Assembly: GCA_002633005.1 (NCBI GenBank)
Contig: NMRA01000399.1
Coordinates: forward strand, 1-64,000
Source: Phoronis australis
Taxonomy: Eukaryota; Animalia; Phoronida
DNA length: 64,000 nt
Reading direction: 5' to 3'
In this document: positions 4,001 to 38,225 of the stretch, one piece after another
Layout: each line of letters begins with the position of its first letter
How positions within the stretch are numbered: position 1 is the first letter of the stretch
The notes under the pieces: model-generated
Told to the model about the DNA's origin: nothing
Seen by the model: the letters and a program-made list of their open reading frames with translations, nothing else
Databases searched by the model: none
Made by a program: the position numbers and the translations under genes

Positions 4001-4119
4001 ATAATGTCTTGAAATCTTTCAGAGAATGCTTACTCCACAACATAGGGTTTGTAAAGGGAAAATGGAATGGCCTGCTTAAACGTGGAATTGGGAAGAAAAT
4101 AATTGTTAACCTGTTCAAT

Positions 4120-5585
4120 AAAGTCTCAAGATAAGAAAAAAGTTGTGCTTACAGCATATTGTAACCAGCCAGAGAATGTTTGGTTCACCGTGTGACTTTG
4201 TAAAACTAACATACAATCGTAACTTGGGTTCCAAGTTTAAGCAAGGGCGTGGCTTGCTTAAACTTAGAATTTGGTAGAAAACAATTGCAAATGCATTCAG
4301 AGATGTTCCAAACGTAATAGAAAATGCATATATGACATACTGTAACCGGTCAGAGAATATTTGCTGCAACACACGATTTTTTGTAAAGAAGAAATTGAAT
4401 TATTTCAAGTTTAAGCAAGGGCGTGGCTTGCTTAAACTTGGAATTGGGTACAAAAAAACAACGAAATGCATTCAGGGGTGTTTCAAAAGTAATAGAAAAT
4501 GCACTTACAATGTATTGCAACCAGTGAAAGAATGTTTGGTTAACCACGTGATTTTTTGTAAGGCAGAAACTGAATTATTCCAAGTTTAAGCGAGCCACGA
4601 CCTTGCCTAAACTTGGAATTGGGTAGAAAAAAACTGCGAATGCGCTCAGAAGTGTTCCAAAATTAATAGAAAATGCATTTAAAATGTCTTGCAACCCATT
4701 ACCGAATGTTTGGTTCACCATGTGTTTTTTGTAAAGCAAAAGTTGAGTTATTCCAAGTATCTTGCTTAATCTTGGAATTGGGTAGAAAAACTGCGAATGC
4801 GCTCAGAAGTATTCTAAAGGTAATAGAAAGAAGCATTTAACATATTGCAACCAGTCAGAGAATGTTTGGTTCACCACGTGAGTTTTTGTGAAGCAGAAAT
4901 TGAGTTATTCCAAGTTTAAGCGAGCCACGCCCTTGCTTAAAATTGGAAGTGGGTAGGAAACAACTGCGAATGCATTCGGGTGTTTCGAAAGTAATGGAAA
5001 ATGCAGTTACATTGTATTGCAATCATTAAGAGAAGCCGGTTTGGCTCACATCGCGAACTGAATTTTTTAGAGAAGAAATTGAATTATTCCAAGTTTAAGC
5101 AACCAGTGTGGCTTGCTTAAACTTGGAATTAGGGAGAAAAAACAGCGAATGCGCTCAGAGGTGCTCTAAAGGTAATAGAAAAAAAGCATTTAAAATGTAT
5201 TGCAACCAGTTAGAGAATGTTTAGTTAACCGCGTGAGTTTTTGTGAAGCAGAAATTGAATTTTTCCAAGTATAAGCGAGCCACGCTCTTGCTTAAACTTG
5301 GAGTTGGTTAGAAAAAACTGCGAATGTGCTCAGAAGTGTTTCAAAATTAATAGAAAATGCATTTAAAATGTCTTGCAACCAGTTACCGAATGTTTGGTTC
5401 ACCAAGTGATCTTTTGTAAAGCAGACATTGAATTATTCCAAGTTAAAGCAAGGGCGTATCTTGCTTAAACTTGGAATTTACGGGGGTAGAAAAAACTCGG
5501 CCAGAGGTCTTCTGAAATTAACTGAGAGAATGCCTATAAAGTGTACGTATTGCAACCAGTTAGTGAATGTTTAATCAAGTTCACC
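4120..5585. repeat. Tandem array of ~8 x ~175-bp units, each with a 17-bp-arm hairpin
   Basis: TTCCAAGTTTAAGCAAG-N7-CTTGCTTAAACTTGGAA recurs at ~4229, 4403, 4578, 4751 (partly deleted), 4908, 5087, 5263 and 5436, with conserved intervening motifs (GTAATAGAAAATGCA, TTGCAACCAGT, GAATGTTTGGTTCACC). Confidence 0.92.
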
Positions 5586-6024
5586 TCTTGATCAAACATC
5601 AACCAGGCACTAATTTCAAACATCAAGCTTTATTGGAATAGGCAGCAACACAGAAATCAAATGGCCACCGTAGCCGTAGGGCTATGACCTTGAATGCCCG
5701 GTGCATTACTGAGGGAACATGTAAGCACAATCAGTCCTTAAGTGATTTTTTATTCCAGTCCCTCGCCGGGTACTAGTATTCATGACCAGGCCACGGGAGC
5801 TTTATTTCGCCTTTTTAGTTTCTCTCCGTAGCCTATACCGGTTCAAGCATTAACGATTTCAGCCCAAGCGCCTTGTTCTGTGATTGTGTGTCAGGCAGCC
5901 ACTTAATTCCAAGTTAACGCAAGATTCCAAGTTCACGTACGGGGTTTGGCAGTTTGCTTAATTAATCTCAAATCTTGAAGATTACTTGCGTGATCTAGGA
6001 ATTCCTACTAGTTCACGCAACACT

Positions 6025-6320
6025 CACTTCCGCTTATTCTTGATATTAATCAGGATAATCAGCAGTTGGTAGGAGTGGTTAGTCAAAGGACCATGTCTGA
6101 CTTGACGTGGAAAGCCGAGCATCTATGGGTTTGCCCCGAGCGTGACGACGCTGATTCTGCACCCGAGTATACCCAAGTTCACGTACAACAGCGGGAATCA
6201 TGATTTACTCTCGACGGTCAACAGATAGCGTTGCGATCTTTTCTAGGAAATGTAGCTTAGTCACTTAGTGACTCGAATGTTCCTAAGTTAATATTCGTCA
6301 GTTGGCTTCAGAAGGTAAGT
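6025..6320 (+). promoter_or_regulatory. Candidate promoter and non-coding first exon of the DED-TPR-TIR gene
   Basis: ETS-type CACTTCCG at 6025-6032, CpG-richer stretch, and a consensus donor AAG|GTAAGT at 6315. The DED exon has an acceptor 20 nt before its ATG, which implies an upstream 5'UTR exon. Confidence 0.35.
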
Positions 6321-7574
6321 TCTCATGCAGTTTAGATTGAGGACGCATTTGCATATCTTTTGGCTGTCGTGAAGATCGTTAAGCTTCTAAACATCAGGTC
6401 AGAAGTCCAACTCTGTTGAAGCAACTTATAGCCGGAAGAAGCACAAAATAATGGAGTTGTAATTCTTGAGGACTTGAGGGAGGAATCTCCGACTTACCAG
6501 CTCCGATTTCAACAGCACTAAGTAAACCAAACGTCTCAATTAAGAATAGAGTTGTTGTAGATGTGCTTCCGGTGAATTATATGAGCCTCTGTTAGCTACT
6601 CGCTAACGGGCAATTGCCTATTAGCTGAATGGTTAGCACGCTTGCCGGTTTTATGTTTATGGGGGTCGCGGGTTCGGGTAATCTCGGCTAATACTACAGA
6701 GTTATCAGTTGTTATTTGTAAATAATATCCTGAACTGTTTACGGCAAATTTAGGTTGTCGAATAGACGTCTTCCGGTCTGCTGTCATACATTGATTCCTA
6801 ATCATGGATATCTCGCCGGACTTCGCTTGGATGATGTACTTTGACTATAGAAGAGGAAAGTCTGATAACACTGTAAACTCCCATTCCATGCATATAACAA
6901 TTTAGAGCTGGTTCCACCTAGCTCAACCGACAAACGAGATCTCACCACAGTTCTCGTCTGCTGTTATGACTTGTACAAGACTTGTACGTTGTATAACATC
7001 ATCCAATAAACCAAGGAGACCAGACATCTCTAAGCATCTAGCAATCTCATAATTACTAATACGGTGTTGATGTGCTAGCAGTGAAAGGCATTCTGTTCGG
7101 TTAGGAACGTTGAATGCGCGACACAGTGCGAGAACGCGGTCCAAGGATAATACTAGTCTGAAGGAGGATAATAGTTTTATTACATACTCTTCTACTGATA
7201 CTACTGAGTCTGTTACAATCCATGCGATCATACACTTTTATAGTGACATACATGAATCATAACAGGATATAGTGAACAAACATGTTTACTACAATTCCTC
7301 ATATTGGGGGTGTATTACGTAACACTTAATTCTCTGAACTACTCCTACACATGCACTCACTGGGATATGAGATCATACTCTAACATACGGTCTAACAGAT
7401 CACTGGGTTCAAGCGTTGTAAACAGTATGAATTTACTGAACGGCTATATATACTTTGCTTTCCAGCAATATGTCTTGTATTGTAACTATGCTGCCCTTAC
7501 CACTTTATTGCTTAAAGAAGACAGCTTACCTTAAGGATATATACCACTGGTCCTGAACACAGAAAATGCACGTG

Positions 7575-7838
7575 TTGACTGATTTGCAAACAAAAGCAAA
7601 CAACAACTGAACTTATCACAACCAAGGTAGAACAATGACTGACTCGACAGCTCTCACACTCAGACTATATGAAAAGAAATTGGCGCGAAATTCTTACCTC
7701 CCAAAACGTCTGCTTCCAGAGTAGAGGACAAATAATTAACTAAATTATAAAAAGCTGTAATTAAGTGAAAACTATGTCTAGGATAATCACCAAACATTAT
7801 TTTTGCTAAAAATGACATGAAAAAGGTTGCCTTCGGCT
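7575..7838. mobile_element. Diverged terminal fragment of the Kolobok-like family seen at 40151-41484
   Basis: Aligns with 41220-41484 and ends ...CATGAAAAAGGTTGCCTTCGGCT+TTAA, about 100 bp upstream of the DED exon. Confidence 0.75.
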
Positions 7839-7959
7839 TTAATTGTCAGCATGTTTCACTGAAGGCACAATGATTTCAACTGATATTTGATATCACTGCA
7901 TATCAATATCACAAAATTTCAACTGATTTTTTAATTTTAGCAGCCAGAGTTCAGATGCA

Positions 7960-8248
7960 ATGGCTACAAGATGGTCTGAAGAGCAGTCACCCCCGTGTGA
8001 CTGGCGGGGATTAATATTCAACATCTGTAAGGAGTTGTCCGAAGAAAACATGAAGTCAATGAAGTTTCTGTGCAAGCGTAATCTACAGAAAGGTTCATTG
8101 GAAACATGCAAAGATGGATTAGATCTCGTGACGCTGCTGGAGGAACGCACCTTAATAACTGAGCAAGATTGTTCTTATTTGATACTACTGCTAAAAGAAG
8201 TTGGAAGAACAGACTTATCGCGAAAACTCCTTGATGCCGATCAGAAAA
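7960..8248 (+). CDS. Exon encoding a death effector domain (DED)
   Basis: WRGLIFNICKELSEENMKSMKFLC...KDGLDLVTLLEERTLI..DCSYLILLLKEVGRTDL matches the caspase-8/FADD DED pattern, including the C-terminal RxDL motif. Acceptor TTTTAG at 7935-7940; donor GTATGT at 8249. Confidence 0.9.
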
Positions 8249-11200
8249 GTATGTCTTATTTCTTGGCCTTTGTTCATTCATGCTGCCTCGCTTAACTTGT
8301 CACTTTTGGGGCTTTGATAAAAGCGACAACTTCTTTGAGTCATGATTCATGGGAATGTTAAAGGTGATGATGACTGGTTCAGATTGCCTAGTTGTGCGAT
8401 GACAAGTTTAAAGAATACTAAACTATGTTTTGGTGATTTCAACTATATCCTCTTTTTGTCCCTCTTAATCTACCACTGACGTTCAACTTCATTGATAAAA
8501 GAAGGATTCAACTAAAACATATACAATGTCACAGAATGGACATTATAGTTTTTAGTGAATGTCTCTTCGCTACAGTTGTTGTGTAAATCATCTAAAGTGT
8601 ATGTCTAACTTGCTACTTTAGCAGACTTTGTTGGGAGTTTTTAGATTTCCCATAAGCCGTAGAAGTTGGACAAGGGTTAAGGAGCATTGTTTTACACAAT
8701 AAAGTTGTGTGTGAGTGTCATTGTTAAGATTATCTAGGAGCTGAGAATACTTTCCAAATTTGACTACCTTCGGCTCAGATTGGATTTATATGAAACTTTC
8801 AGACACCAAGCTTTATGCATGCTTCTGTAAACCTTTGTTGGGAACTGTGATTTAAAATGTTCCACTTTTGCACGAAGGTCCATTAAAATTAGAATGTTTA
8901 ATATTATATTTGTGGAAAATATAAAAGATGCATGAGAGAAAATGAAGTGATCACATGACAACTGTTGAGATTTTATCATGAACACGTGCATTAAACTGAT
9001 GTCACCAATTTTGGACAAAAATAATTGTCAAAATTGCGCTTCTTTAATTTTTTAAGAGCTGTCTGCCAGTTGGTAGGTATAATAGTACTAAATGTGAATA
9101 TGTCAAAACATTTCTGTATTGTGAAAAAATGAGAATATGCAATTGCCTCTTGTCCACCATATCGTGTCCTAAATTTGTGAGATTATACCATTACATTAAT
9201 AGAAATTTGGTCGTGTTGTTTTGGTTCTTTTGTGGTTAGGTGACCCTGTCATTGGCAGATTGGTACAATGTCAAAAATCAAATTCAACTTTCAGAAAAAC
9301 GTACACTTTCACTGAATTGAAACAGGCAGTGCTGTAGGTACCTAGCCATAAATACACACTTCTCTTAAAGTTAAAAAACAGGTGTGGTTCATTTTCCAGT
9401 GCTGTGTCTTTATTGACTTGATCACCATTGTTTGCCTTGAAGTCCCACATATGCAACTATTGTAAGATGGCCAGCTTAAACTTGCATTTCCAAGTTTGGG
9501 TTGATAAATGCCACCTGCAGCTCATTGGTTGGTTTTGACCCTTAGCAGGGATCACTTCAATTAGTCAACACCTAATTACATTTTCTTTTTTCTGGTCTAG
9601 TGTTTTTATTCAAATTCTATTGCTTTCGTTCTCTCACTACATTAAAAAGTTGTATGACTATGTTTGCATGTGCAAGGATATTCCTGGACTGTGCCTTTGC
9701 ACCATTGGCTCATAAAAAATAAAAAGGCGCAAGTACATTGCAACGGCGGTGAGCTCCTGGAGGCTCATATGCAAAAATGTTCCAGAAACTGAAAGATACT
9801 AGTCAACGTACTGCCTGTGGGGTAAAACATAACCCTGTTCTTATTTCAATTGCCCTTGTGATTCTGTTTTATATGTGACAACTTGAATTATACAAAGTCT
9901 GCTGGGCACAACTTTTTGAAAAAAGACACACTTTTTATCATCAGGTGCGCCAAAGGGCCAAGGTTCAAACCTAGTCAGGAATATCCCTGCATGTGCTTCA
10001 CAAGCTACCAGTCTTATAGCATATTGTGGAAATAACATTTTCACAGTTTAGAACCTGTAAGGTGCTCTGTTAAATCAGGTGAATAAACAGTAAGATTCCA
10101 AATTATTTCATGTACCGTTGCTGGTTGTTTATAGGCAAAACCATGGTTCTCCTTCATCAAGGAAAACTATGGATAGCTATAACCACAAAATAGTTTCCTT
10201 AGATACGTGGAGATGTGTAAAAATTAGAGACTCATGAAAAATGAAAAGGGGAGAAAAACCATGAGGGCCCCCATGGAAAGCAGTGTTAAACAATGGGGCT
10301 CCCCTCATTGTAAATATTACATTAATAAATAAACATGAAAAATTTCAGAATTGTATGGACTACCCTCACTGTGTGAGTCCATTCATCCATTTGTTCATTT
10401 GCATGTAGACAACAGTAGAGAAACTAATGCTTGTGAAAAGGAAAATTTTATTGAGCTGGAGAATCGAAATAAATGCATGATGAACGGTAACCTTGAAACA
10501 CTGGACGTGCTTAATTTTTCACTCTACTTACAAAACTTTGTGCATTATTTTCACCCAAAACAGAATCAGCTAACGCCACTGGCAGACTCCCTCTCAGCCG
10601 TGACTCATCATTAACAAGTGCTGGAGACTCGGCGCAAGTGAAGGAACACAACTCAAGGTCTAGTGCGTCTGAATATGGTGGCCGTCGAGGACACTCCAAT
10701 GGTTTGTTCTTAATTTTGTTCTTGTCAACAAAAGCAAACTCTACTCGATAACTTCAGTGTTCACATTCCAACATCACATTTTTTTATTTAATCACAGTCC
10801 CGCATTTTTTTAAGAGCAAATAAATAATCTTGACCATTGGAAACCAAAGTTTGGGATTGTCATAATGGGGAGACAGTACCCATAAAGATTACCTTATAAG
10901 GTAAGCCTGGCAACTGCACCATGAATATAGTCAAAATCACGTCAGGGGCCATGATTTAGGTAACCATTATTTATACTAATTTCAAATTATTGTTTACTCA
11001 GTTGAAAGTTAATTTCTGGACTTCACATGAACTGGCTGTGTGTTGACTTTGATTCCTTGATTCGAATTAAAAGTCAAATAAAGTCACTTTGTGCACGAAA
11101 ATTGAAGAGTGCTGGCCATAGTACAGGATATGCAGTGTAGTTCCAAGGCTGAACAACAGGTGAAATGCTGGTTGGTCATTGGCCTTTTGACACAATATAC

Positions 11201-14200
11201 ATTAGTGACTGGTTGGGTTAAACCAAGTTTTGAACCTTGGGCCTGTTTTGTGAAAGTGACTTCAGATTGAAATTTGGTTAACTGTTCCACTTGATAGTTT
11301 CTGGGATTATCTCACAAACGATTATGCATGTAGTCTTAGAGTCACTTCACTTTTGTTCAACCGAGGTTTTCGTTATTTTTCATAAATAGTGGAGCATATA
11401 TAATGTATGTGGTGCATTCCACAGTATTAGTTTTGTTACAGATGTGACATTCAGACACTTTAAATTCCAATATAAAATTAGTGAAACATCACAGTAGTAA
11501 GAAATTTTAAGTACACATTACACACTTGATGGAAGTTTTTCAGGTATCAAAAGTTTTTAATTCTGCACATTATAAGTGTACTAAAATTTACTTTTAATTA
11601 GTGTTACAGATGTGACCGAAAATGCCATGGTTAATATGCTAATGGTGGTTTGTCTAAAAACTCTGTTCTGTCTTTCATATTATGGAACTAGTTTCCCTAT
11701 AGATAATTTAACTATTTATTTGGCTATAACATGAAGAAAAGGTTTTTGAACTAAAATCAAGTCTTTGTATAATTATGAGCAATTTAAAAAAACCACGTGC
11801 GTTACAGATGTGACTGTTACAGATGTGACTATTTGGCACTTGCACTATACAGAGTTGTAGAATGCAATTTTAATGAAAACAAAGCTAATAAAATCACATT
11901 AAGTGTATGTAAGGGTTGTGGGTAAACTATTTTAGTGTTTTTGATAGATGGAGTCTTAAAATTTACTTTGCTTGTTTGCGTGCACCTGTGTTTTGAGCTT
12001 CATTATGAAATTGTGTTCACTGAGAGAAAAATACAACAACTATACCAAGTAAGTCCTTAAACCACCTTGAAAAAGTTGAGTTTAGTAACAGGAGTAAATC
12101 AGGTACAACTAACTAAGACCAACATAAACACTCATACAGGTATAATTACGAAGTGACGTGAAATGCTGACATGACGTACTGAGCTAAAATCTTAGGATTA
12201 AATGTTCGTTTAGGCTGCGACAGTTGCTTGTCCTTGTAAATTATTCTGAGCAATGATCGATATGCAGAACAGGCAGTTTTTTGATTATTTGGTCCGTCAA
12301 TCCATGTGGTGTCGTCTTGTGCTGGTAAACTGAACGCAGTCTTGTTACTATCTGTTTTTCTCATGACAGTGACTTTGATACCATCTCTTTCAACCATCAT
12401 GGTCTATGCAACGTTTGAGCTCCTAGGACACAATTGTTCCATCGAAATTGGAATCCTAGCGTGAAACAAATATCCCGGAGTCAAAACAGCTAACCAGCCC
12501 GAAAAACAAACCCGGCTTTTAAAACGCGAACCCCAGTGATCAAATAGGGAACCTTGACAATTTTTCAAATTTTCTAAGACAACGTCAATAGCCTCAAACT
12601 GAGCATTTTCTAGTACTTTCCATTTGTTTTCTGAATTTGTTAAAGATTAGCAATAATAAAACGTAACTTACGTTATGTTGACTTGTTGCTTAAAACTCGT
12701 GCAATTTGTGGTCACCAACTTTTCTGTTCTTGTCCTCAAGAAGAGTTACTTCAACTCCTCAATGATCACTAAATTTGGAATCGGAATTTCTGAACTCTAC
12801 GCATTCACATGCTTTTTTGGTAGATAATCCCTTAGAATTCTGTGACCATTGTGGCATCCACCACTCAAGCACATGCCATTTTTCATTGTTCACCCTGTCT
12901 AGTACACTGTACACACGTCCGCGATTTAAGAATGAACACTTTTTTTGCTACAGATCAGTCCTAAGTTGTTTAAAACAACATATCACATCAACTATTTAAA
13001 ATAGGAAGATTTATTGTTTCATCAAAATGTGAAATTGATACAAGTCGTATGAACACAGAGTGCTAATAAAGGCACTATTTTCTTGCAATAAACAATGTTG
13101 GAAAGCAAGTACAGGAGTGGTGTTTCGGTCCGGGGTGTCCTGTCCGATCCCCAGGGTTTCTGTTTTAGAGGTCGGGGTTTGTGTTTTTCGGGCTGGTAAG
13201 CTGTTTTGAAGGTGCGGTAGTACGTTTTTGACTCTGGTCTATCTGCTTAACACCGTAATACCAGTTTTGATGGAACATCTTGCTTGAAACGAATACCTCG
13301 GAACTCAACAACCACAAAATCACTGACAGAAAAAACACTAATCAGTCCCTCTGATGAAGGGGGATATGCCTCCGGTGAAGTGGGCGGATTTTCAGCTTGT
13401 GCTTTGGGTGAAGTTTGTGGATTTTTCAGCTGGTTGCTATAGTGAATGAAGGGGACCTTCAGTGCATGTGTTCTTCACCGCAGTGTGTGTCGACGTTACT
13501 GTTAGCCGTGAACTATCGCTAAACGGGGAGTACTTGGCTCAGTAGATGATTAACAGTGGCTTTAACAATTCTTCATAGATATTTGTTCAAATTAATCATA
13601 CACACCTTTTAAAAATTGAGTCATGAAAAGTAAATCTTTACTTAGTGGCTGCAAAAGATGGTCACATTTCTTACATCATGTCACATCTGTAACAAACTGT
13701 TACAGATGTGACTTGAAATGTTTTTTGATTTTTTTGGAACTGGATTGAGATACATTTGAGAAATTTTGCTAAATTATGTTGATTAGGGTGAATAAAGAGA
13801 AAATTAAATTGTGTTAAAATTGATTTACTTTTTTTCCTAAAATCAAAACTTTTGTTACTTAAATGTTACAGATGTGACTTTCACTAATTTGAAAGTTTAA
13901 TTGGAAATACTAATTATCAAAAAATCAGGTAGTTTCAACTGTTAGTATACTTCTTGTGTAGCAAATGATATATTAAAACAATTTTGGCATTTATTTCTTC
14001 ATGTCTGTAGAAAAAATTATGAAAAAAGTTATGTCACATCTGTAACGCAAAATTTTACAAATAAGAGATAAACCTTCCGATAAAAGCAAAATTTCTAAGA
14101 CTAACAGAAAATGGACCTGCAGACAACAAAATTCAATGATTAAACTATGTTTTAACATCAAAATGAAAGTTAAAAGGCTGATTTGAAATTTTTAAGTCCA

Positions 14201-17200
14201 TGGCACAAATACCGTGGAATGCACCATGTATTGTTCATAAAAATATTATTTTTGCTTCTTACATACCACGGAAAGTAATTAATTGATAAGCAAATTACAC
14301 CGCTCATAATTTGTAGCCCCTTCGAGCGCCCCAGAAAAAATCTCAACCAATCAGCGTAAGGTGGTGACATATGACATCATCGTAGCCACAAAAATTACTG
14401 GGAAGCCACACTGGGTAACAGCTGAGTGCCATTTCTTGGACGTTCTGTACTTGTCGATTTCTGGGATAAAATTCTTTTTTGCGTGATGTGCGGGTGTAGA
14501 AATGTCATCGACAATGGGATACATTTGCACAACTTCCCCACCGATCACGTCGTGTGCTGTGCGTGGAATAGATTCGTATCCAGGACAAGGACTGGCGACA
14601 AACTTCCCGATCGGCAAGATCTGTTTTGACTAAATAAAATCTGACTCAGAAATAGTGTCACTAAAAGCTGCACCGCTCTTTGAGTAAGCCAGATTATTTA
14701 CCGGTGTTGGAAGAATTATCGTTATAGGCCTACCGCTCATCTACTGCTAAAATTGAAGTGCGCTCATCGTGTCGGCGTTTCAGTTGCGATTACGTCACCT
14801 GACCTGTACAGTTTCGTTTCCCCCCGGTATATTTTTCTATCAACTGTTCTTTGCTGCCACGAGGTTGCGTACTGTCACAACAAATTGTCGGAACTGGTTT
14901 CATTTCGTTACAAGTTATTAGCATTTTTAGGACCAGCAAACCGAATTTATAACAAACGTTACTGCTGCGAAGCTGCCATCATGTCCCAAAAGAAGTCGTA
15001 AAATTTTAGTACGGCACGTGCCCGTGTCACGAGGGTACTGTTTTCACAACGACAGACTTTCTTTGTTACACCATAGTCTATGGTTACACAACTCAAAAGG
15101 CACAGAGTACATGCTAGAAAATGACGTTTATTAGATTGTTCTTTCCCGTAAACGACTAGCAACGGGCAAGGTGAGCGTCGGAATTGTCTCCCAGATTTTG
15201 CATGTACCCCGGCCGTCGGTCGTTGGCTCTGCGATATAAGTTTCACGACGAGGTGACTAACACAACTCATACCCGGCTTGTATGAGATTCAGTCTATAGT
15301 CTGTGGTTTAAATACCTCAATTCACAGTGTTACCTTGCTGTATTTTGGCGATAATCTTCAAACAGCGAGCTGACTGGGCTACAAAAAAATCTGCAGTGTG
15401 CACTTCGACGTTTCGTGTTACTGTTTCGGCCCAGAAGAGTATAGGGAATCCGGTATATGGCACGATATAGGGTAAAGCATAGACTGGGTAAAGTGAAAAC
15501 GCGCATTTTAAAATGTGTCGGTTATTGACGTTGAAATCGACACATTTAGTTTCGCAACTAAAACCCGCAAAAACTAGCTGATTAAACTACGATCACCGAC
15601 TGGATCGTAACTTTCCGGCAGTGGTACAGCGGACGCGCACTCATTCTCTCCCAGGGCAGTTAGTACGTGGTCCTCCGCCAACCCATGGGTAATGAATACG
15701 GTGCCGCAGGGCAGCCGATCAGGCCTTATATGTGGATGCCATTCTGGGAAACCGCAAAAAATATATATACCAGCATTTTAGTCGGCATCACGACCGCCAA
15801 CGTCTCTGAACTTGAAACCGACACAAATGGCCAATAACCGACACATTTCTCGGAACAGAAAATTACGCACACATACGCAGGTGACACTATGATACCTGCA
15901 GCCCCGCTCCGACCTCGGCAGCGCAGACCCCGCAATTAAGCTGCCGGACCGCCGTCTGGGAAGTTTTCACAGATATTACCGGGACACGACAAGGAACTGT
16001 ATACCGGCCAGCCGGTCGACCCCGATACGTTTGCTTTTTGTTACATTTTCAAAGCACCTTTGAGAAAGCGACACAAATGGCCAATAATCGACACATTTTG
16101 TTGGACTTAGAAAATTTTGCACATAGGCGTAGACAGACCTGCAGACGGACTGTAGCGCCCCGGTTGCGGCCAGCCCAGACCCGCATCCCGACTGCAGTGG
16201 ACTGCGTGACCCGCCGTCTGGGGACTTTTTGCAGATAGCCGGGACACGACTAGGGACCTGTATCCCAGCTCGCCTCTCGACCCGCTATGTTTGCTTACCT
16301 TTGTTATGTTTTCAAGGCTTCTTTGAGAAAGCGACACAAATGGCCAGTAAACGACACATTTCTAGGGACTTATAAAAATTTTCCACACAACGTTTCTGAA
16401 AGCGACACAAATGGCCAATAATCGACACATTTATTGAGACTTAGAAAGTTTGTCAATGTGACGTTTCTGAGTCCCATTTAGCGCCGAAAAAACTTAAGGT
16501 GGCCCTCGTACTAATCATCTTAGTTGTGACCCGAGAGGTACAATCTGTTGCCACAGGAAACTTACCTTTCGGTGACGGGTGCAGATTTCAAATCACAGAA
16601 TTTCAAAATTACATCTATTAGAGACGACAAAGTTAAGATATTACGACACATATCTTGACACTTCCCCTTGCATGTAATATCTTACTATTCGCTGTGCCAC
16701 GATAGCCTAGCGTCACTGAAGTCAGTAGCGCGGTCTCAGTGGAGACCTCTTACTCAATCTAACATCAAACGCTTATTCACAAAGACATCGGGGCGCAGTG
16801 AACCAATTAAAGTACAGGGTCCCTGCGTGCGGAGCGGGATGAATGGAGATTCGTCGGATCCCCTGCGACATACTGGTGGAATGCGTGTACCAGAGAACTA
16901 ATCTGTTTGTAGTCGCTCCGTGACAATTACGGGATTATGTCGAGGCTTAGGTCTAAGGCGGCGAATGGCCCAAGATTTTTCGCACTTGGGTCAGAGAAAT
17001 TTCTAAATCCAAGAAATGTGTCGTTTACTGGCCATTTGTGACGCTTTCTCAAATAAGGATCGAGCCTTGAAAACATGAGGTAAGCAAACGTATCGGGGTC
17101 GATCAGCAGGCCGGAATGTTCCGGCTATCTGTGAAAAGTCCCCAGACGGCCGTTCACGGGGTCAAGTCGAACTGCGGGATCTGCGCTGGCCGAGGCCGGA

Positions 17201-20200
17201 GCGCGCGGCAGTCCCCTTGGAAGTCTGCCCCTGCGTATGAACGAAATCTTCTAAGTACCTAGAAACGTGTCGATTATTGACCATTTGTGTCGCTTTCAGG
17301 AACGTTGCGTTGAAAAATTATCGAAGTCCCATGAAATGTGTCGTTTATTGGCCATTTTTGTCACTTTGGCTATCTGCGAAAAGTCCCCATACAGCGGTCC
17401 ACGGCTGTCAAGTCCCGCGGCCTGCGGGGTCTGCCCTGCCGAGGTGCAGAGCGCAACAGGTCTCTCCCTGCGTATGGCGAAATGTGTCGATTATTGGTCA
17501 TTTGTGTCGCTTTCTCAAAGGTGCTTTGAAAATGTAACAAAGTAAAGAAAACGTAGCGGGGTCGATCGGCAGGCCGGTATACAGTCCACAGTCTTATCCC
17601 AACTACCCGTGAAAAGTCTCCAGACGGTGGTCTACGCGGTCATGTACGGCAACCTTCGGGGTCTGCGCTGCCGAGGCTGGAGCGGGGCTGCAGGTCTGTC
17701 CTCTGTGCATTGGTGCGAAATTTTCTAAGTTCCGAGAAATGTGTCGATTATTGGCCATTTGTGTCGCTTTCTCAAGGAGTCTTGAAAATATAACAAAGGT
17801 AAGCATACAGCGAGGTCGATTGGCGGGCCGGGATACAGAGTCCCTAGTCGTGTCCCGGCTATCTGTGAAAACTCCCCAGACGGCGGTCCACGCTGTCAAG
17901 CTCGGTATCCTGCGGGGTCTGCGGTGCCGAGGCCGGAGCGCTGCAGCTAGGTCTGTCCCTGCGTATGTGCAAAATTTTCTAAGTCCCAAGAAATGTGTCG
18001 ATTATTGGCCATTTGTGTCACTTTCAGAAACTTTGAGTTGAAAAATTTTGCGAGTACAAAGAAATGTGTATATGACTATCGACGCCGGAGCGCGGAATCC
18101 GTATCGGTCGGAGCCTGACCAGCGGAAGACACGGGGTGCGCTTCCATACTGGCCAGTGGAAGACAGGGGGCACACGGGTACGTTCTCATTGACGGAGCGG
18201 AGCCGGCACCGATTTGTGGTTTGCGGACTTTTGTTTCTCTCAGCATGATTTGGAAGTTTCCGCGGGTTTTGGTCGCGAAACGAAATGTGTCGATTTCACC
18301 CGCAATAATCGACACATTTTAAAATGCGCGTTTTCATTATACCCTATATCGTGCCACTGTTGGATAATCCAGCCCAAATCCGGAATATTCTGTCTGATTT
18401 GGGTCCTTCCCGTAGGCCTAACGGAATTCTGATACTGAATTTAAAACGTTCAATTGGTTACAAATTCTTATAATTAGGTATGTTTTCATGCAATCCAGAC
18501 TTTATTTCGTAGTTTTAATTTTTTACAGACACTCACAATGTTGTGTTGCTATTAAATTTTCAATTTTTTTAGGTTGACCGAGTAAAAATGTCGGCGATTA
18601 GGCTACAGGTTGCAGCATTTCAAGGCGATTTATTTTGGAAATTGAGTTTCGAATCTAAAGTTTTCAATGAATTTGATTACAATTGGGTTGTACGAAAACA
18701 TCAAGCTGATATGTATTGTAACGTTTCCAAGTATTTTACACCAAATTAAGCGGCCTGTTGTCGCCTATACCAATACGGGGACACACACTCGACAGCCACC
18801 CGCAGGCCTATTGGAATGGCGCAGCGTTCACGCCTTCAGCTTTAAAAAGACGGGAATGCAAAGCTCCTGACATTAAAGTTTTTATATCAAGCAAATTACT
18901 CTTTATAATAAACATTGTGAAATGGCTGATAACAATTCAGACGAAGCGTTTTGTTTTTTCCGGCGGTTTCGACGGCCCCAGTCACACTCCCGGGGATTCC
19001 CATACCGCCGTATTGGAATGTGTGCTAAATAATTGAATAAAAAATTCTAAAGATAATGATTTTAATATTGTCTGACATGAAATGAAACATTAATGTGTTT
19101 CCCTGATTTTCCACGTATTTTGCACTAAATTAAATGGCCAGTCATTGCTGATTCCAATACTGTGGAGACCCCTTGAAAGACAAATTCGTGGTAACAGGAA
19201 GAGATAACCAGTCCTGGTTATCTCTTCGTGGTGGTAACGATAATGTCATTGACTTCGATTGGCGCGAGCGCCATCTCAAGTTTTTTTTTTGCGCCAAATG
19301 GGGTTCGCGATGGGGCTACTGTATTGTCGAAGGCCTATTTAATTAACGACTAGGGTATGCCATGACAGAGTATTTTGATGTTTTTTATCAATAAATGTAT
19401 TTTAGATGTAAAAATAATTATTTTGGCACCATACTTGACCATTAAGTGACTTATCTTGATAAGTGACTTATCTTGATAAATGACTTATCTTGATAAGTCA
19501 CTTATCTTGAAACAGGGCTCTGGTCTCAACCAATAAAAAGACTCAGTTCTTTACAATCCTAGAAATAAATCAAGTATAGCTTACAACAATTAATTTGAGA
19601 ACAAATTTCAATTGTTAAGTAAGGTGGCTCAAATCAAAAGTTTTTGACTAAAGACTGGTTTGTTCTTTAGACATGTACATACTTTTCTATTTCTGAATCC
19701 TTGGTAGCAGTGCTATTGTTAAAATACCACGCCAAGAAGCTCTTGAATTACACACAAAAATAATAACCAAAATTGCATTTTTTAACAGCTGACTACGTTC
19801 TTTATGTTTTGTAAATATTACGAATGTTTTTTTCTGCTATGTAGTTCATGCTTACAATGAAACACATAATTAAATATTTGTTTTTGTTGACAGATTTTGC
19901 TGAATTTTTTACTTGTTTGCCATTTTAATTGTGTACAAAGTTGAAGAATTCTGTTGCAGGCATGACTGAAGGTAAAGTTGTCAAAGAACTGCAGAAGGAG
20001 GGCATTGAGTGTCTCTTTACCAATTTATTTCTTCAAAACACTTTAAGTTTGCTGAAGGGTAATCGGGCACGTTTCGCAGGCGATCTTAAGAATGAGGAAT
20101 ATGCCCGCCGGTATCCACTAATGAACCTCCTCGGGTTTTTGAACTTTAGAGCAAGTGATGGACGACATGAAGACATGTTTAAGGACATTCTTAAGGAGAA

Positions 20201-21671
20201 ACCTGGTAACTTGCTTGCTTTACTCAATTTGGTGTTCCTTACTGAACACTTGGGTTCGTTAGAAGCAGCTAGAAACCATAGAAAAGAAATAGTATGCATT
20301 CTGGGCTCTAGAAATGGATCTGCACATATGGCACGTGCCAAGTATGAACTGGCAGAGATTTTGACAGCTGTTGATGCTCACAAACAAATGGGTGGAGAGA
20401 AAATTGTTGAACGCCTGTTTGAAGAGGCATTGAGGTGTGAAGATATTGGCGATGACGAGAAAAGGGAATGGAAATTTGGATTTGCTTTTTTCTACTTTAA
20501 AATGGACAGTTGGAAAGGACAGTACTGTGAAAAGTACTTTGTCAAGGCCATGGTAGGCTTCTATGGCATTGTAACACAACCATCAGAAGAGGTTACCAAA
20601 CAGAGGTCACCTCGAGTGCTTCAGAGATTGAATGATATGATATCAAAAGGATGGTGTTTCATTGGGAACATGCTCTCCAGATGGGAAAGAAAGGCAAACT
20701 ACAGAGTGCTGTCTGATGTACCGGAAGTGAGAGACAGATGTACGACTGATCATGCCAGATTTACCTTGACTGATTGTCTTCTTCAGGCAAAAGAGAATTG
20801 GATGGAGCAAAATAAGGCTATGATTTCAAGACGTATCGGTGTTGCCTTTTTAAAGGTTAATATGACATATGCAAGGGAGTACATCCATAAAGCACTCAAA
20901 TTAAAGAGAGATGGTTACGGATGCAGTTTGTTGGGAAGGTACAATCTTAAAATGTACAAGGATGGCGAAGGAGATGACTATCTTGATCAAGCAATAAATA
21001 GTTTCAGTGAGGCAGAAAAGACATATGAGTGCGATCTGTGGCACTGCTACCGTGATTATGCCGAGTGTCTTTTCCATAAAGGGAAATATCTGGATGCTCT
21101 TGTTAAATGTAAGAAGTCTGAAGACTGCGGTGGTACCCATGATAATAGCCTGTATTGTCTGTGGGCAGAGATTCTAGAAAAACGTGGAGATCAAGAGGGG
21201 GCATTGAAGAAAAGAAGTCAAGGTGAGCGGGTAAAATCTGGCGACTTCAGCGAAAAATACACCATTGGTTGGCTTTATTGCGACGAGGATGCAAGTAAGA
21301 TTGGGCACTTGACTATGCGTTTAGAAGACCGTAAAGACTGCATTATTACCATATTTTATGTTACTCGAGACATGGTGGGTGGAGGACAGGAGAGTCTTGA
21401 ACCATGGGAAGAAATAGACAAGAAATGCCAGTGGATACTGGTCTACTGCAGTGTTGCCTTTGATAAAAGCGAAGGCATAGCCAAGAAAACTCTTCCCGGA
21501 ATCATTCAGAGCAGAAGTCGTGCTGGGAAACTAGAGACTATAGTTACCGTTCTTGAAAGTGAAATCCAAGTGCCTCATCTGATTCTTAAGAACAACAAGA
21601 CACTTAAAGTTGACGACCCCAGTTTGTTTTGTGATGAAGTCGAGAGGCTTGTGAACAGAGAGATGAAGTAG
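7960..21671 (+). CDS. Spliced gene encoding a DED - linker - TTC22-like TPR - TIR-like protein (~712 aa); putative innate immune/death signalling protein
   Basis: Exons are 7960-8248 (ATG...GTATGT donor, phase 1), 10564-10701 (CAG acceptor, GTTTGT donor, 138 nt, phase 1-1, open frame) and 19960-21671 (TTGCAG acceptor, in frame, TAG). The total of 2139 nt is 713 codons with no internal stop. Splice linkage is inferred, not transcript-supported. Confidence 0.72.
10564..10701 (+). CDS. Ser/Gly-rich linker exon of the DED-TPR-TIR gene
   Basis: GC-richer 138-nt island bounded by CAG/GT. It reads (K)SANATGRLPLSRDSSLTSAGDSAQVKEHNSRSSASEYGGRRGHSN(G), in phase with both flanking exons. Confidence 0.6.
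11411..14225. mobile_element. Non-autonomous DNA transposon with an 18-bp TIR, a 4-bp TSD and repeated internal motifs
   Basis: GGTGCATTCCACAGTATT ... AATACCGTGGAATGCACC, flanked by ATGT on both sides. GTTACAGATGTGAC occurs about 8 times in both orientations. Confidence 0.8.
12415..13310. mobile_element. Nested degraded inverted-repeat element inside 11411-14225
   Basis: TGTTCCATCGAAATTGG...CAAAACAGCTAACCAGCCCGAAAAACAAACCC is mirrored by GGGTTTGTGTTTTTCGGGCTGGTAAGCTGTTTTG...CCAGTTTTGATGGAACA. Confidence 0.55.
15458..18359. mobile_element. Foldback-like DNA transposon with ~1-kb modular inverted arms
   Basis: Termini TGGCACGATATAGGGTA / TACCCTATATCGTGCCA(CTG). GACACAAATGGCCAATAATCGACACATTT occurs 4 times on the left arm and its reverse complement about 6 times on the right arm, within GC-rich ~250-bp modules. 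Confidence 0.8.
18360..19445. mobile_element. Terminal part of a TTAA-bounded DNA transposon (same family as 1-388)
   Basis: 19022-19445 is homologous to 1-388. The left extent is uncertain. Confidence 0.5.
19443..19519. repeat. 17-bp minisatellite (TAAGTGACTTATCTTGA x ~4), probably a MITE remnant
   Basis: Visible tandem units ending in CTTGAAACAGGGC. Confidence 0.75.
19960..21671 (+). CDS. Large terminal exon: TTC22-like tetratricopeptide repeat region plus C-terminal TIR-like domain
   Basis: Part of a 580-codon ORF. The motifs NLLGFL..., PGNLLALLNLVFL, LFEEAL...EKREWKFGFA..YFKMD and KGWCFIGNMLSR parallel TTC22 as recalled (PGNLNAWANLAHVY, LYDKAL...EEKRGWYFTMATLYIRLD, LAWCYLGMLLER). From ~21255, YTIGWLYCDEDA...RLE, RDMVGG, IDKKCQWILVYCSVAFDKSE, IVTVL and VPHLI follow TIR strand/helix order. 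Confidence 0.88.
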
Positions 21672-21744
21672 GCCGCGGTCATCTATGTACCGTGCACTGC
21701 AGAAATTATCATTGGCAAAAATGATGTTAAGTTCCCTGTCATGA

Positions 21745-22004
21745 CAGTAGTTGAGTGCTGGTGGCATTGCCTGTGGATACAGTTGAATGCTGTTAGTATT
21801 GCCAGTCGTTACAGTTGAATGCGGTGGTATTGCCTGTGGTTCCAGTTGAATGCTGGTGGCATTACCGGTCGTTACACTTGAATGCTTGTGGCATTGCCTG
21901 TGGATACAGTTGAATGGTGTTGGTATTGCCAATCGTTACAGTTGAATGCAGTGGTATTGCCAGTCGTTACATTTGAATGCTGGTGGTATTGCCAGTCATT
22001 ACAG
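21745..22004. repeat. ~30-bp minisatellite directly 3' of the TIR stop codon
   Basis: ACAGTTGAATGCTGGTGGTATTGCC(AGTCGTT/TGTGGAT) repeated about 8 times. Confidence 0.85.
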
Positions 22005-22543
22005 CCAAGTGTGGGTGGACTTCACCATGAGTGTGGCTGGAAGGTCTTGCCTTAATGGGACACGACAAGTGCGTGAAAGTGGCTGAAATTGGGCTTGGTA
22101 ACCAGTTAGCCAATGATTTTCATAGGCCTTTGGCGGTGCCCTCATATGAACACGCCGAAATTGAAATGAGGGGCTGAATAATTTTAGAGCTGTGATTCAC
22201 CTTAAAGCTTCCAAGATCCGCTATTGGCTTGACAGAGATGACGGCATATTGCGTCCACATATAAATATGTGGGCGCATTATGCCGTCATCTCTGTCCGTC
22301 CGTCCGTCCGGGCGGCGTCCATCCGGCGTCCGCTGCTCTATCTCCAAAACCCTTTGACATACGTTCATGAAATTTGGCACATATGTTCCATTCATGAATG
22401 GGACGGCATGTGCGAACTTTCGGACGGATCCGACTACCGGTGTGCCCCCTAGTGGCAGTTTTAGTTTTTTACGCTTACCTTTGTATCTTCAAAAGTCCTG
22501 AACGGATTTTCATGAAATTTGGTATGTAGGCACCTAGTAGTGA

Positions 22544-23412
22544 GNNNNNNNNNNNNNNNNNNNNNNNNNNNNNNNNNNNNNNNNNNNNNNNNNNNNNNNN
22601 NNNNNNNNNNNNNNNNNNNNNNNNNNNNNNNNNNNNNNNNNNNNNNNNNNNNNNNNNNNNNNNNNNNNNNNNNNNNNNNNNNNNNNNNNNNNNNNNNNNN
22701 NNNNNNNNNNNNNNNNNNNNNNNNNNNNNNNNNNNNNNNNNNNNNNNNNNNNNNNNNNNNNNNNNNNNNNNNNNNNNNNNNNNNNNNNNNNNNNNNNNNN
22801 NNNNNNNNNNNNNNNNNNNNNNNNNNNNNNNNNNNNNNNNNNNNNNNNNNNNNNNNNNNNNNNNNNNNNNNNNNNNNNNNNNNNNNNNNNNNNNNNNNNN
22901 NNNNNNNNNNNNNNNNNNNNNNNNNNNNNNNNNNNNNNNNNNNNNNNNNNNNNNNNNNNNNNNNNNNNNNNNNNNNNNNNNNNNNNNNNNNNNNNNNNNN
23001 NNNNNNNNNNNNNNNNNNNNNNNNNNNNNNNNNNNNNNNNNNNNNNNNNNNNNNNNNNNNNNNNNNNNNNNNNNNNNNNNNNNNNNNNNNNNNNNNNNNN
23101 NNNNNNNNNNNNNNNNNNNNNNNNNNNNNNNNNNNNNNNNNNNNNNNNNNNNNNNNNNNNNNNNNNNNNNNNNNNNNNNNNNNNNNNNNNNNNNNNNNNN
23201 NNNNNNNNNNNNNNNNNNNNNNNNNNNNNNNNNNNNNNNNNNNNNNNNNNNNNNNNNNNNNNNNNNNNNNNNNNNNNNNNNNNNNNNNNNNNNNNNNNNN
23301 NNNNNNNNNNNNNNNNNNNNNNNNNNNNNNNNNNNNNNNNNNNNNNNNNNNNNNNNNNNNNNNNNNNNNNNNNNNNNNNNNNNNNNNNNNNNNNNNNNNN
23401 NNNNNNNNNNNN
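22544..23412. other. Assembly gap (second gap at 1043-1186; single-N joins at 37614, 41733 and 44805)
   Basis: Runs of N. Confidence 0.99.
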
Positions 23413-28304: not shown

Positions 28305-31300
28305 CTACATGCCAGGCAGATCACTCATGCTCTTTTCACGTGACTCCGTCCACGCCTTGGCAATGGTTCTCTTCATCTCATCATCTCCATCTTCATACAT
28401 CTTCTTCATCATGTTCATCAGACTCTCCTGCGGATCTTGGCTTTCGTCGTATTTTGGCATTTTGCTTAAATGAACGTAAGTTTTGAACTAAGTTTTATAA
28501 CAGCAACACAACTATGACGAAATGAGCATCAGGGCCCAGTTGCATAAAAGTTATACGTCGTATAGCAACAATGACATCGCATTATCATGCGTCACGTTGT
28601 TATTGTTGAACAATGCACCTCATGTCAGCGGATAACTTTTGAAGCTTTATGCAACCCACCCTGGTCAGCATGACATGTGACTGGCACATGACTGGCACAC
28701 GAGCCCACTGATGGACAGTTCAGCTGGTGGATTCCACGTAAAGTGACTGAGAAACACTTCAATTATAAATTCATGTCTGATTTTCGCACGGCATGAAAAG
28801 AATCTCAAAATCAAAAAGTAAATAGTCATGCCATCTCTTGAAAAGACAATTGAATCGATTGATTGCTCACATGAAATAAATGATTAACTGACAGTTACAG
28901 CATTAAACATCAATTTTCCTTAATGTTTACCATTGTACAGTTGAGGTGCATGGCACAAATGTATTTTTTTTCTTTTGACAGGTGATTATACAGTAATAGT
29001 GCCCCAATACCCGCGACAAAAAACCACCTAAACTTACTCCTTGCTCTCTTTCGCATCAGCTTCTCGCTTTGTCACATAAGCCCAAGTCTTCACCTCTGAT
29101 TTCTTCAACATAACCAACACACTATCGGCCTTCACCTTAAAGCAAGTTAAGCAGAATGCTTCAACAGTATAAAGTAAAGACGGACATCGGTATAATATAT
29201 TAAAATATTCCCTGCATTTAGAGCGGTATGCACTTTATCAAGGGTGTGACACAGACTGATAGATAGATATGTGACGCAGCACAGAAGATGACATGGTGAC
29301 GTACAACAAGAACAATATGGATCCTAACAAGCCACAGAGGGAGCATGCATGAAGAGACGAAGAATCTCAACAGAAAAAGGTGCCTAACGTATATTATTCA
29401 CTGCACACTTGCAATGATATACCTACGTCCCTGTTTAGACCTCTGGCGTGGCTATAGAATGTGGCAATGAACTCAGCCTCGTACGTTCTCCGAGAGTTGA
29501 TATAAGGCAATCGCCTTTAACTACTAACACATTAATGTCACTGATAGTGTGTCCCACAAGATTGAAATGATTCCCGGTGAGGACCACCTTATTGTTGTGC
29601 AGGATCATCTGTTTATGGCCGTTCATTCTCGTGCGTAATGGGTTACAAGTCTCCTCAAAATACAAAGCGCGAGGACAACACATCTAATCAGATAAGCAGT
29701 ACAGGCACTTGAGCATGTGAGCTTATTGCCGATTCCATACGAGACACCATCAAGGCCTGTAACAGACTCCTCTGATATACGAGTGCAAGTCGAGCACCTC
29801 CGTTTCTCACATCTCACAGCAGGGACTCATCTAGGATTTGAAAATTGGGGGTCCAAATTCGTGAGACTGATGAGTCGTGCAAAGCGTAAATCTGAGGCAC
29901 ACAGCGCTGATGGAGGGGGGGGGGGAACCTGGGGCGCCCAGCGCTGATGGGGGGGAAGGTGGGGGTGAAGCTCCCCTCACCCGCTGAGGAAAAAAATTGT
30001 TACATAAAAAAGGTCATTTCCTTGCATTTTATTTAGCACACTGTTTGCGTGTCTTTTTCTTGTTCAAAGGATGGCACATAGGGAAACTAAACAAAAATTA
30101 GGAGGTTTGTTCCATTCAGGATTTGTGTATATTGTCACTAGACTGCAAAAATCAAGATCTGTAAATATTTTTAGTAAGATAATCTGTGTAGAGTTGCATG
30201 TTAGACAGATAATCCACAGCATGAGTACAGTACTCAATGTATCTTGAAACTCTCAAAATAGAAGTGTACTACTTTAATGCAGCTGAGAAACCATTTAAAA
30301 TTATGAGAAGACAATGAAGTCGCATTCGAAAGGACCTGAAGAAATATATCCTAGAGTACTTGTCTACGTTTCATTACATCGCACAGTACTGCAATTCACG
30401 AGTCCACAAAAACAAGGCCATATCCTCAACAAATTCACAACTCAGTATCACCAGTGCTCAACACGGGCGAAAATCTCCGCTGGAAAATAGAAGTGACGGC
30501 GTATGTGCACTCGCACGTTTATACCAGGACTTAGCTTCGTAAAGGATCGTGACCAAAAAACGTCGAAACTCAGTGTTTGAATTTGGCATTCGTATTTTTA
30601 CGTTTCTAAATGTTTTTCCGAGCGCTTTACTCGTAAATTTCACGTTGTTTGGCTACGAGCGTCGCCAGTGGTCGCCGCGGACATCGTAGTTGTTAACGTC
30701 TTCTGCATTGCATTATAAGTGGACGCTTTGTTGAATTGAAACTTACAAGGTCGAAAGTCAATCACAGTCTTTCATAGTACGCTACAAGAAATTTATTCTT
30801 AAAAAGAACCATTCTTTTCTTGCAATTTAAGAGCCTGGTTCACGGCCGAGGTAACAGAAGCTGTGCACGTGACTGGCTGACCAATTTTTTCCATACACGG
30901 CACGCAGTGCCACACACAGAGGATAAACTCGAATCGCCCAATAATCATGGAATTCAACAAAAAGTTGAACTATTTCGAGGCAATTTACTATCATGCTAAG
31001 TTAGTCATTGAATACGTAACCAACATTACACACCACATTTTTTTCTCGTAAAGTTTGCACTGCATTTTCGCGCATCAATAGAAGTAGTTCGGCTGTGCGG
31101 ATTTTTTTGATAATTTTTCATTCATTCGTTCGACTTGCAACGGAACTATGCGAACAAATTAAGGAAGTTTGCGCCAAGTTTTATCTGGTTTGCATGTTCA
31201 ACGACATTGATGGCATTTGTATGGCAGGTCAGTGCTACAATTTTGGCGGGTATCATTTTTTTCGAAGTGTATGTTCTCAGCTATTTCAAATTGGCTACTC

Positions 31301-36510: not shown

Positions 36511-36529
36511 CTGTAACAAGAGAATCTGA

Positions 36530-36637
36530 ATGAGGTTCACAGATCAGAGGAGTGAGGTTCATAGAAGATCAGAGGAGTGAGGTTCACAGAAGATCAGAGG
36601 AGTGAGGTTCATAGAAGATCAGAGGAGTGAGGTTCAG
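36530..36637. repeat. ~25-bp minisatellite next to the CACYBP acceptor (also at 39270-39400)
   Basis: AGAAGATCAGAGGAGTGAGGTTCA(C/T) repeats. Confidence 0.85.
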
Positions 36638-36979
36638 TGACAGTTTTTCCTCAGCACGTGAGACGATAATGAGTACACCCCAGTACGCAGCAACAGCGTG
36701 GGATGTTGACTGACTCATAAGCAAAAGCATACGACGACCGAACTTATCACAACCGAGGTAGAACAATGACTGACTCGACTGCTCTCACAGTTGGACTATA
36801 TGAAAACAAATTGGCGCGAAATTCTTGCCTCCCAAAACGTCACTTCCTGAGTAGATGACGAGTAATTAATTAAATTACGAAAAGCAGTAACTAAGTGAAA
36901 AATATGTTTGGGATAATCAACAAACCTTATTTTTGCTAAAAGCAGCTAAAACTGACATGAAAAAAGGTTGCCTTCGTCT
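36638..36979. mobile_element. Right end of the Kolobok-like element, left by a deletion
   Basis: Matches ~41154-41484 and shares the same downstream flank (TTAATGTCAAGGTCGCG). Confidence 0.85.
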
Positions 36980-38225
36980 TTAATGTCAAGGTCGCGAATG
37001 TGTGAACTTGGAATACACTAGGAAACTTATCAATTTCACTCAAATAATCATATTGATGTTGATAAAAATTTGCACAATACTACAGCAAATTATATACTGG
37101 GGAACCCAATGGTCGTCCGCCTAAGCATAAAACCGACTTGCTGTTGTACTCACCGAATTATTCCACTTCAAAGTTATGATCTGAATAGGATTCAATTTAA
37201 CTCTCACAGATATACCGCATTCATCGATTCGGAAGTTTTCATTAATTTGTGCCGAGTTATTTCAAATGTGCACTGCCTTCGGCAGCCATTTTATTGTGAC
37301 ACCTAAGGTCGTCATATGCTGCCCCCTTTTGTAAAAACTGAGAAACATGCAGAAAAAGGCCAACGAAGCAATGAAAATTGCAACAGCCTGTTTTTATTGA
37401 CATAAACTCGATTTGAAGCTTTGATGTTGAGCTCTGCACTGTGGTTTCCAATAAAAGCCAATTGGACAACATTTCAATGCAGTTTAATGGTGAATGTGTG
37501 AGGAAAAAATGTTAAGAACCCAGCGTATTGCATTTATCTGCGGATTTTTCTTTTGGCCTTCTAGATCCTACTAGTGCCTGGGACAAACAGATACATTGCA
37601 TAAACAAACCCTGNGATCCATACAGAACAATAGACACATCACGACAAGCTCAATCGTCGAGCTTCATACAGAACAATAGACACATCACGACAAGCTCAAT
37701 CATCGAGATTCATATAGAACAATAGACACATAATGACAAACTCAATCATCAAACTTCATACAATAACAAACTGCCAGCTGTTACTAAGCCCAATAACTAA
37801 CTTTAATATGAGAATGGAGACCAGATTTATAGCAGTAACTGTACAACATTACAAGTTGTTTTTTTCACAGGAGGATTTACACTACTTATGACTAAATGTA
37901 ACTGGAAAAAATTCTATAAATTGTTACAAAAACAATCTTTGCCGAGTCAAGTCTAATAATTATGCAATAGAAATACCCAAGCTGTTGTTCATATATTACA
38001 TGGAACTTTGCATTACAGCTCAGCACACAAGGATAACGGACATCATTCAATTAACTGTTTTTACAAGGGCTGACAAGCTCAGCATACCAGGATAAAAAAA
38101 TTAATAAAGTTTGCATGGAGACAACTGCACGAGTGAAAAACGCGAACCTGATCGTCTCTTTCTAAACAGCATAACAGCATTTCATTTTTAAAGCCTCGTT
38201 AATAAAGCCCATATTGAATACTAAC

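Follow-up and report, generated by a model that had tools for sequence, protein, structure and literature searches.

Gene structure and transcription

The window analysed here, 64,000 nucleotides of contig NMRA01000399.1 of the phoronid Phoronis australis (assembly GCA_002633005.1, positions 1 to 64,000), carries on its plus strand a transcribed gene whose coding part spans positions 7960 to 21671. By predicted splicing, this gene probably encodes an in-frame fusion of a death effector domain (DED) at the N-terminus, a linker, a tetratricopeptide repeat (TPR) solenoid resembling that of the IFIT proteins and a TIR-like domain. Both introns are of phase 1 with GT-AG borders, and the three joined exons form a single frame of 712 amino acids (aa), which confirmed, at the level of the genomic sequence, the predicted three-exon, phase-1, in-frame structure of about 712 aa given by the original prediction. 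The features of the gene are:

7941..7959 (+), 5' part of exon 1 upstream of the ATG; the acceptor AG ends at 7940 or 7943, and a transcript contig of set X4 aligns from 7942
7960..8248 (+), coding part of exon 1 with ATG and DED, 289 nt; phase-1 GT donor at 8249
about 8005-8241 (+), Pfam match of the DED inside exon 1
10564..10701 (+), exon 2, Ser/Gly-rich linker of 46 codons, 138 nt, AG..GT, symmetric phase 1-1
10702..19959 (+), intron 2, 9.3 kb, repeat-rich; CpG-rich at ~14.5-19.5 kb, with a sub-threshold THAP fragment
19894..19959 (+), extension by an alternative phase-1 acceptor; in-frame stop, no ATG; its use would give a 153-aa product of DED and linker
19960..21671 (+), exon 3, 1712 nt, AG acceptor, TAG stop
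19962..21251 (+), TPR solenoid with a predicted IFIT fold, residues 1-430 of exon 3 counted from its own ATG
21252..21671 (+), TIR-like domain that is degenerate and lacks the catalytic Glu and the Pro of the BB loop, residues 431-569 of exon 3 and stop
21672..22029 (+), minimum extent of the 3' untranslated region, holding a 32-bp tandem array (21749-22004)

Splice sites were scored with a generic matrix that is not trained on P. australis. Because an acceptor AG precedes the ATG of the DED exon (exon start at 7941 or 7944), at least one additional upstream exon is likely, which may end at a strong predicted donor at 6315. Exon 2 is one of three equally scoring symmetric exon candidates within its interval. 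No second copy of any exon was found inside the window. Runs of N mark assembly gaps at 1043-1186 and 22545-23412; the latter lies just beyond the 3' untranslated region, so that the polyadenylation site may be hidden in it.

Reads of three raw RNA runs (X1-X3; about 18-19% of each was read) and the contig set X4 were aligned to positions 5600-22500. Exon 1 and exon 3 were transcribed from the sense strand in all three raw runs, and coverage in the exon 1 bin and in four exon 3 bins was almost only sense, whereas the repeat-rich intron bins were covered in both orientations. Sense depth per exon base in X1/X2/X3 was 0.5/3.3/8.4 for exon 1, 2.2/2.2/3.9 for the linker end and 0.2-4.0/1.0-2.4/4.9-9.4 for the exon 3 bins, and is comparable across the exons. 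In the bin with the last 26 nt of exon 2 the signal was weak: its faint depth, sense-only, fell short of the length of one whole read; low depth is expected there if reads are clipped at the exon 2 donor. Transcript contigs aligned at 7942-8148 (16 differences in 207 nt), 20470-20624 and 21243-21750, with 8-9% differences that were similar in exons 1 and 3, and therefore represent either a different haplotype or a closely related paralogue. The 32-bp array is shorter in the sequenced transcripts, in which a joint connects 21750 to 21973 (X3 and X4). A pseudogene is ruled out by the open frame of 570 codons together with expression.

The death effector domain

Exon 1 matches Pfam PF01335 with an E-value of 1.4e-18 (67.3 bits against a cut-off of 35.9) over model positions 2-80 of 82, and its best match in the PDB is DED1 of caspase-8 (E 4.8e-10), followed by cFLIP and FADD. 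These matches verified the DED exon, which had been recognized from its translation. The functional motifs of DEDs are a hydrophobic FL motif and the charge triad E/D-RxDL. FL and RxDL are both present in exon 1, and the acidic position of the triad aligns to Asn in the comparison with caspase-8 DED1.

The DED exon had no alternative coding partner among 58 plus-strand open reading frames (ORFs) of at least 45 aa and 40 minus-strand ORFs of at least 55 aa between 8.3 and 19.96 kb, a scan that short exons would escape. Downstream, the ORFs examined (minimum length 55-62 aa, leaving out a few that contain N) included no caspase, death-fold or other coding partner; the gene is followed there by CACYBP, on the minus strand, and then by RRP14/SURF6, on the plus strand. 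We therefore rejected the possibility that the DED belongs to a downstream caspase gene. Pfam matched no NACHT or NB-ARC domain, either in the exons or among the 98 ORFs scanned from 8.3 to 19.96 kb, and the reading as an NLR (STAND receptor) was rejected for want of an NTPase.

The TPR solenoid and its relatives

Exon 3 alone gave only sub-threshold TPR matches in Pfam and 0 matches in a sequence search of the PDB; a word-based protein search with exon 3 or a five-row alignment as query returned nothing at threshold, and a single-sequence AlphaFold model was discarded at a predicted local distance difference test (pLDDT) score of 38. A HMMER (phmmer) search of 1.84 billion representative proteins yielded seven matches, among them P0001 with E 1.6e-8. 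Two of the seven, with alignments of ~370 residues, are the TPR-TIR proteins XP_070566814.1 (Ptychodera flava) and XP_063964556.1 (Lytechinus pictus); the remaining five match generic TPR proteins over short stretches. With the TPR region of the P. flava protein as query (7990 candidates scored in a length range of 362-1154 aa), 23 proteins including the query itself were obtained, 18 of them from hemichordates and echinoderms. All 23 have a Pfam TIR_2 domain, and DED, Death or CARD domains were found by Pfam in none. The hidden Markov model (HMM) of this family matches exon 3 residues 53-425 with 92 bits. In the TPR, the window protein is 21-25% identical to its relatives, compared with 33% or more among the relatives themselves. 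Judged by its sequence, exon 3 encodes a member of an uncharacterised invertebrate family of IFIT-like TPR-TIR proteins. The three best Atlas clusters (0.96-0.97; 62, 85 and 54 members; representatives of about 750 aa) comprise two of mostly molluscan TPR proteins and one of mostly echinoderm TPR and TIR proteins, with bacterial TIR proteins next; all three persisted when clusters with any DED member were excluded, a filter that covered DEDs, so that versions with other death-folds (Death, CARD) may exist. A metagenome scan reduced 80 pattern matches to one locus, a DED-less relative. Within the family, the TPR region of P0016 from Antedon mediterranea (1024 aa) is followed by two TIR matches, and P0015, whose listed Pfam domains are TPR and TIR only, carries the name 'Toll-like receptor 4' in its source.

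The predicted fold of exon 3 residues 1-430 matches IFIT residues 7-414 at 14-17% structural identity, with IFIT5/IFIT1 as the top 11 VIA rows of the fold search, and its TPR helices show the subdomain arrangement of IFITs. The TPR-TIR family profile matches the N-terminal subdomain of IFIT1 with an E-value of 2e-12, including the CHxTW-type motif. Both the profile match and the predicted-fold matches support the IFIT-like solenoid that had been proposed. Since it carries extra domains, the window protein falls outside the TPR-only definition of IFITs. IFIT1 contacts 5'-PPP or capped RNA through D34, R38, K151, R187, R255, K259 and R262 (PMC3950709, PMC13197388). R255 is kept as R290 in the window protein, D34, R38, K259 and R262 are not kept, R187 could be matched by eye only, to K180, and K151 lies outside the aligned region. 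The modelled fold suggests that the protein possibly binds RNA, although the mapped contacts are only partly kept. Alternatively, the fusion could be real with the TPR acting not as an RNA sensor but as a protein-binding scaffold, and the protein would then modulate assemblies of DEDs as an adaptor or decoy, which we consider quite improbable.

The C-terminal TIR-like domain

Residues 431-569 align collinearly with positions 5-126 of the HMM of the relatives' TIR domains, which has 132 positions. The match has 6.8 bits, a score that 6 of 2000 shuffles reached, and the global profile score of the region has a z of 2.5 (reached by 6 of 400 shuffles). The region is full length, stop-free and in line with the TIRs of the relatives. 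Pfam TIR had no match in exon 3 at E up to 1, and neither hhalign nor pairwise alignment of the domain with two TIRs or the family TIR alignment was significant, the register being wrong. The fold searches covered the TPR part, not this domain; its model has a TIR-like order of strands and helices at a pLDDT of mostly 31-58, although TIR rows in the alignment guided it. Given that a TIR stands at the corresponding position in all 23 relatives, and that the Atlas features likewise indicate TIR proteins, a TIR origin of residues 431-569 is nevertheless very probable.

Scaffold TIRs of the TLR/MyD88 type are characterised by Box 1 and a BB-loop Pro-Gly. In the window protein Box 1 is altered and the BB loop reads RDMVGG, without the Pro that is also absent in most relatives. 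The catalytic Glu of helix alphaC is missing at the aligned position, although the alignment is weak there; the alphaC Trp/Glu motif is gone, while 11 of the 23 relatives keep a W/Y-x-x-x-E motif. In a leave-one-out comparison with 19 full-length relatives (three with truncated TIRs and the 1024-aa P0016 were left out), the window protein keeps 19% of the bits per residue of family members for its TPR, but for its TIR 2.5%; in identity to the relatives the gap is small, 23% in the TPR and 18% in the TIR. On these sequence features, the TIR appears degenerate and is likely non-enzymatic. The C-terminal TIR of the original prediction is thus weakly supported by the collinear family match and the model order, but not by Pfam or by model confidence. 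Its proposed role in signalling through MyD88 and NF-kB has the weakest footing in that proposal, since the domain is far more eroded than in the relatives and lacks the catalytic Glu and the BB-loop Pro.

The same findings bear on the dual-output receptor of the original prediction, in which the 712-aa protein would address caspase-8 through the DED and a MyD88-like adaptor through the TIR. Such a receptor would share all the gene evidence with a receptor signalling through the DED, and the full-length, collinear TIR region, its modelled strand and helix order and the closeness of the relatives' TIRs to those of TLR1/2/6/10 speak for it. However, the missing Pfam match, the RDMVGG loop, the lost alphaC motif and the low pLDDT even with TIR rows aligned make it unlikely.

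One transcript or two products

Among the 15 of 66 joints listed, which were filled by repeats, none lies at intron 1 or intron 2. Two observations weigh against a transcript that unites the DED with exon 3. Exon 3 has its own ATG (19962) at the usual start of the family. The acceptor at 19894 scores 4.5 compared with 0.6 for that at 19960, and in a translation test its use ended the frame at 153 aa through an in-frame stop, with no upstream ATG. These points would fit an ordinary TPR-TIR gene starting at ATG 19962 and a separate, short DED-only protein, perhaps a regulator like cFLIP or PEA-15, of 153 aa by way of the 19894 acceptor or of 111 aa by reading into intron 1. The absence of death-fold domains from all 23 relatives and AG acceptor candidates directly before the ATG at a relative's locus point in the same direction, as do a palindromic NF-kB-like site (18992-19001) and a site resembling an interferon-stimulated response element (ISRE; 19684-19693) less than 1 kb upstream of exon 3. 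Yet across the window kB matches do not exceed chance, with 13 of 100 shuffles reaching the same level, and ISRE matches are borderline (1 of 100); ISRE-like matches number 12 where 6.1 are expected, none clearly at a promoter. Promoter evidence was not found in intron 2, the two introns are phase-matched, read depth and divergence are similar across the exons, the ORF scans gave the DED exon no other partner, and the score of the 19894 acceptor comes from the generic matrix. We consider the two-product alternative doubtful and the in-frame fusion probable.

Surrounding genes and repeats

A CACYBP/SIP-like gene with Siah-Interact_N, CS and SGS domains lies at 28308-39283 on the minus strand. 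Its first exons are duplicated in blocks that are 96-97% identical (Siah-Interact_N at 36253-36543 and 38996-39283, CS at 33449-33649 and 38165-38374), either by a recent partial duplication or because a haplotype was assembled twice. A SURF6/RRP14-like gene at 43417-51777 on the plus strand contains a 966-bp tandem duplication (43840-44804 and 44962-45924, 97% identical). The stretch 14426-19500 in intron 2 is CpG-rich and internally repetitive, with units of about 256 bp in both orientations and the sub-threshold THAP fragment; a second THAP fragment lies at 40378-40623, and these fragments and repeats are possibly remnants of P-element-type transposons. A 275-bp dispersed repeat with high read depth stands just upstream of the DED exon (7573-7848), with copies at 36704, 40147 and 41219 (84-87% identical), and a tandem array of seven units of about 175 bp at 4068-5572 lies upstream of the gene.

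Discussion

We propose, with slightly less than even confidence, that this transcribed gene encodes a cytosolic sensor in which a likely spliced-on DED is combined with a predicted IFIT-fold TPR and a likely degenerate TIR, and that it signals mainly via the DED. The IFIT-like channel would bind a non-self ligand, most plausibly the 5' end of an RNA and possibly a protein. Ligand binding would cluster the molecules, whereby the non-catalytic TIR, placed where IFIT1 and IFIT5 continue with their last helices, would offer at most a surface for self-association. In line with established DED biology, the clustered DEDs on their flexible Ser/Gly linkers could then seed a DED filament of FADD and caspase-8 and cause cell death. 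The DED was likely gained by exon shuffling as a lineage-specific graft, in which a phase-1 DED module would have been put onto an acceptor just before the start codon of an ancestral TPR-TIR gene, and the output may have shifted from the TIR to the DED. Such a swap of outputs accounts better than a receptor with two outputs for a DED that is intact next to a TIR that is eroded.

IFITs are regarded as effectors of jawed vertebrates that are induced by interferon and do no more than sequester RNA. If our proposal is true, the IFIT fold would be more ancient, a module for pattern recognition that has a signalling output of its own, and a direct route from sensor to caspase-8 would exist in animals without interferon. 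We speculate, tentatively, that a pre-vertebrate IFIT-fold sensor of RNA 5' ends acting on caspase-8 had swappable outputs, a TIR in most invertebrates, a DED here and none in vertebrates, and that alternative splicing at 19894 or 19960 decides whether the receptor or a DED-only regulator is made. With the gene expressed and intact, RNA binding and DED-dependent killing are open to ordinary assays.

In the literature searched, whose coverage missed some likely sources, neither a DED-TPR-TIR architecture nor a TTC22 with a TIR domain was found. DED-TPR, DEATH-TPR and CARD-TPR had no matches among the papers listed, matches being confined to TIR-TPR, and the available parts of PMC6321704, PMC7075850, PMC8195603 and PMC6723221 do not describe the DED-IFIT-like-TPR-TIR combination. 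TTC22, to which the solenoid had been likened, is described as TPR-only, and no TTC22 sequence or structure surfaced in general similarity searches. 'TIR-TPR' occurs as the name of a class in an oyster immune survey (PMC4346834, figure legend) and in the abbreviation list of PMC9334734; the oyster class is likened to the family studied here by its name alone.

Compared with known systems, the proposed N-terminal graft resembles two groups of receptors. In RIG-I-like receptors of brachiopods and sea stars, the gain of a DED by an added exon has been described, with the DED placed N-terminally on a putative nucleic-acid sensor and caspase-8-dependent death proposed (PMC8998645, PMC8662601, from the available text). 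Their sensor is a helicase with a C-terminal domain and they have no TIR, whereas the window protein would sense through an IFIT-fold TPR. The amphioxus DED-NACHT NLRs are described as 'direct connection' receptors that join a death-fold straight to the sensor and bypass adaptors (PMC2575513, in its accessible part, with 0 occurrences of 'TPR' in the main text); the window protein lacks their NACHT/NB-ARC switch.

The solenoid itself compares with vertebrate IFIT1 and IFIT5 (PDB 5w5h, 5udi, 4hot, 3zgq), which share the predicted TPR fold of residues 1-430 and, with the TPR-TIR family, the N-terminal CHxTW-type motif. As far as PMC3688568 is available, IFITs are RNA-sequestering effectors reported in jawed vertebrates only, their genes carry nearly the whole TPR on one exon as the window gene does, and IFIT-like TPR genes of acorn worm and lancelet were excluded from the IFITs by tree. 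IFITs have no DED and no TIR, while the window protein likely has a DED and a TIR-like domain, and the phase-1 intron stands before the ATG of exon 3, in contrast to the intron after the ATG in IFIT genes.

The closest likeness is to the TPR-TIR relatives, with which the protein shares the homologous solenoid, the C-terminal position of the TIR and the position of the start codon; at one relative's locus (L001), too, most of the protein lies on one large exon. Within this group the window protein is a distant outlier with an eroded TIR and without the spacer of 40-60 residues between TPR and TIR, and it likely has an N-terminal DED that is present in none of the 23 relatives. The candidate new receptor class of the original prediction may therefore hold for the combination, which was not found among the relatives or in the literature searched, but not for the TPR-TIR core, which is a conserved invertebrate family, a 'TIR-TPR' class having already been named. 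We conclude that the protein is probably a lineage-specific DED variant of an already listed TPR-TIR kind and not yet a new receptor class.

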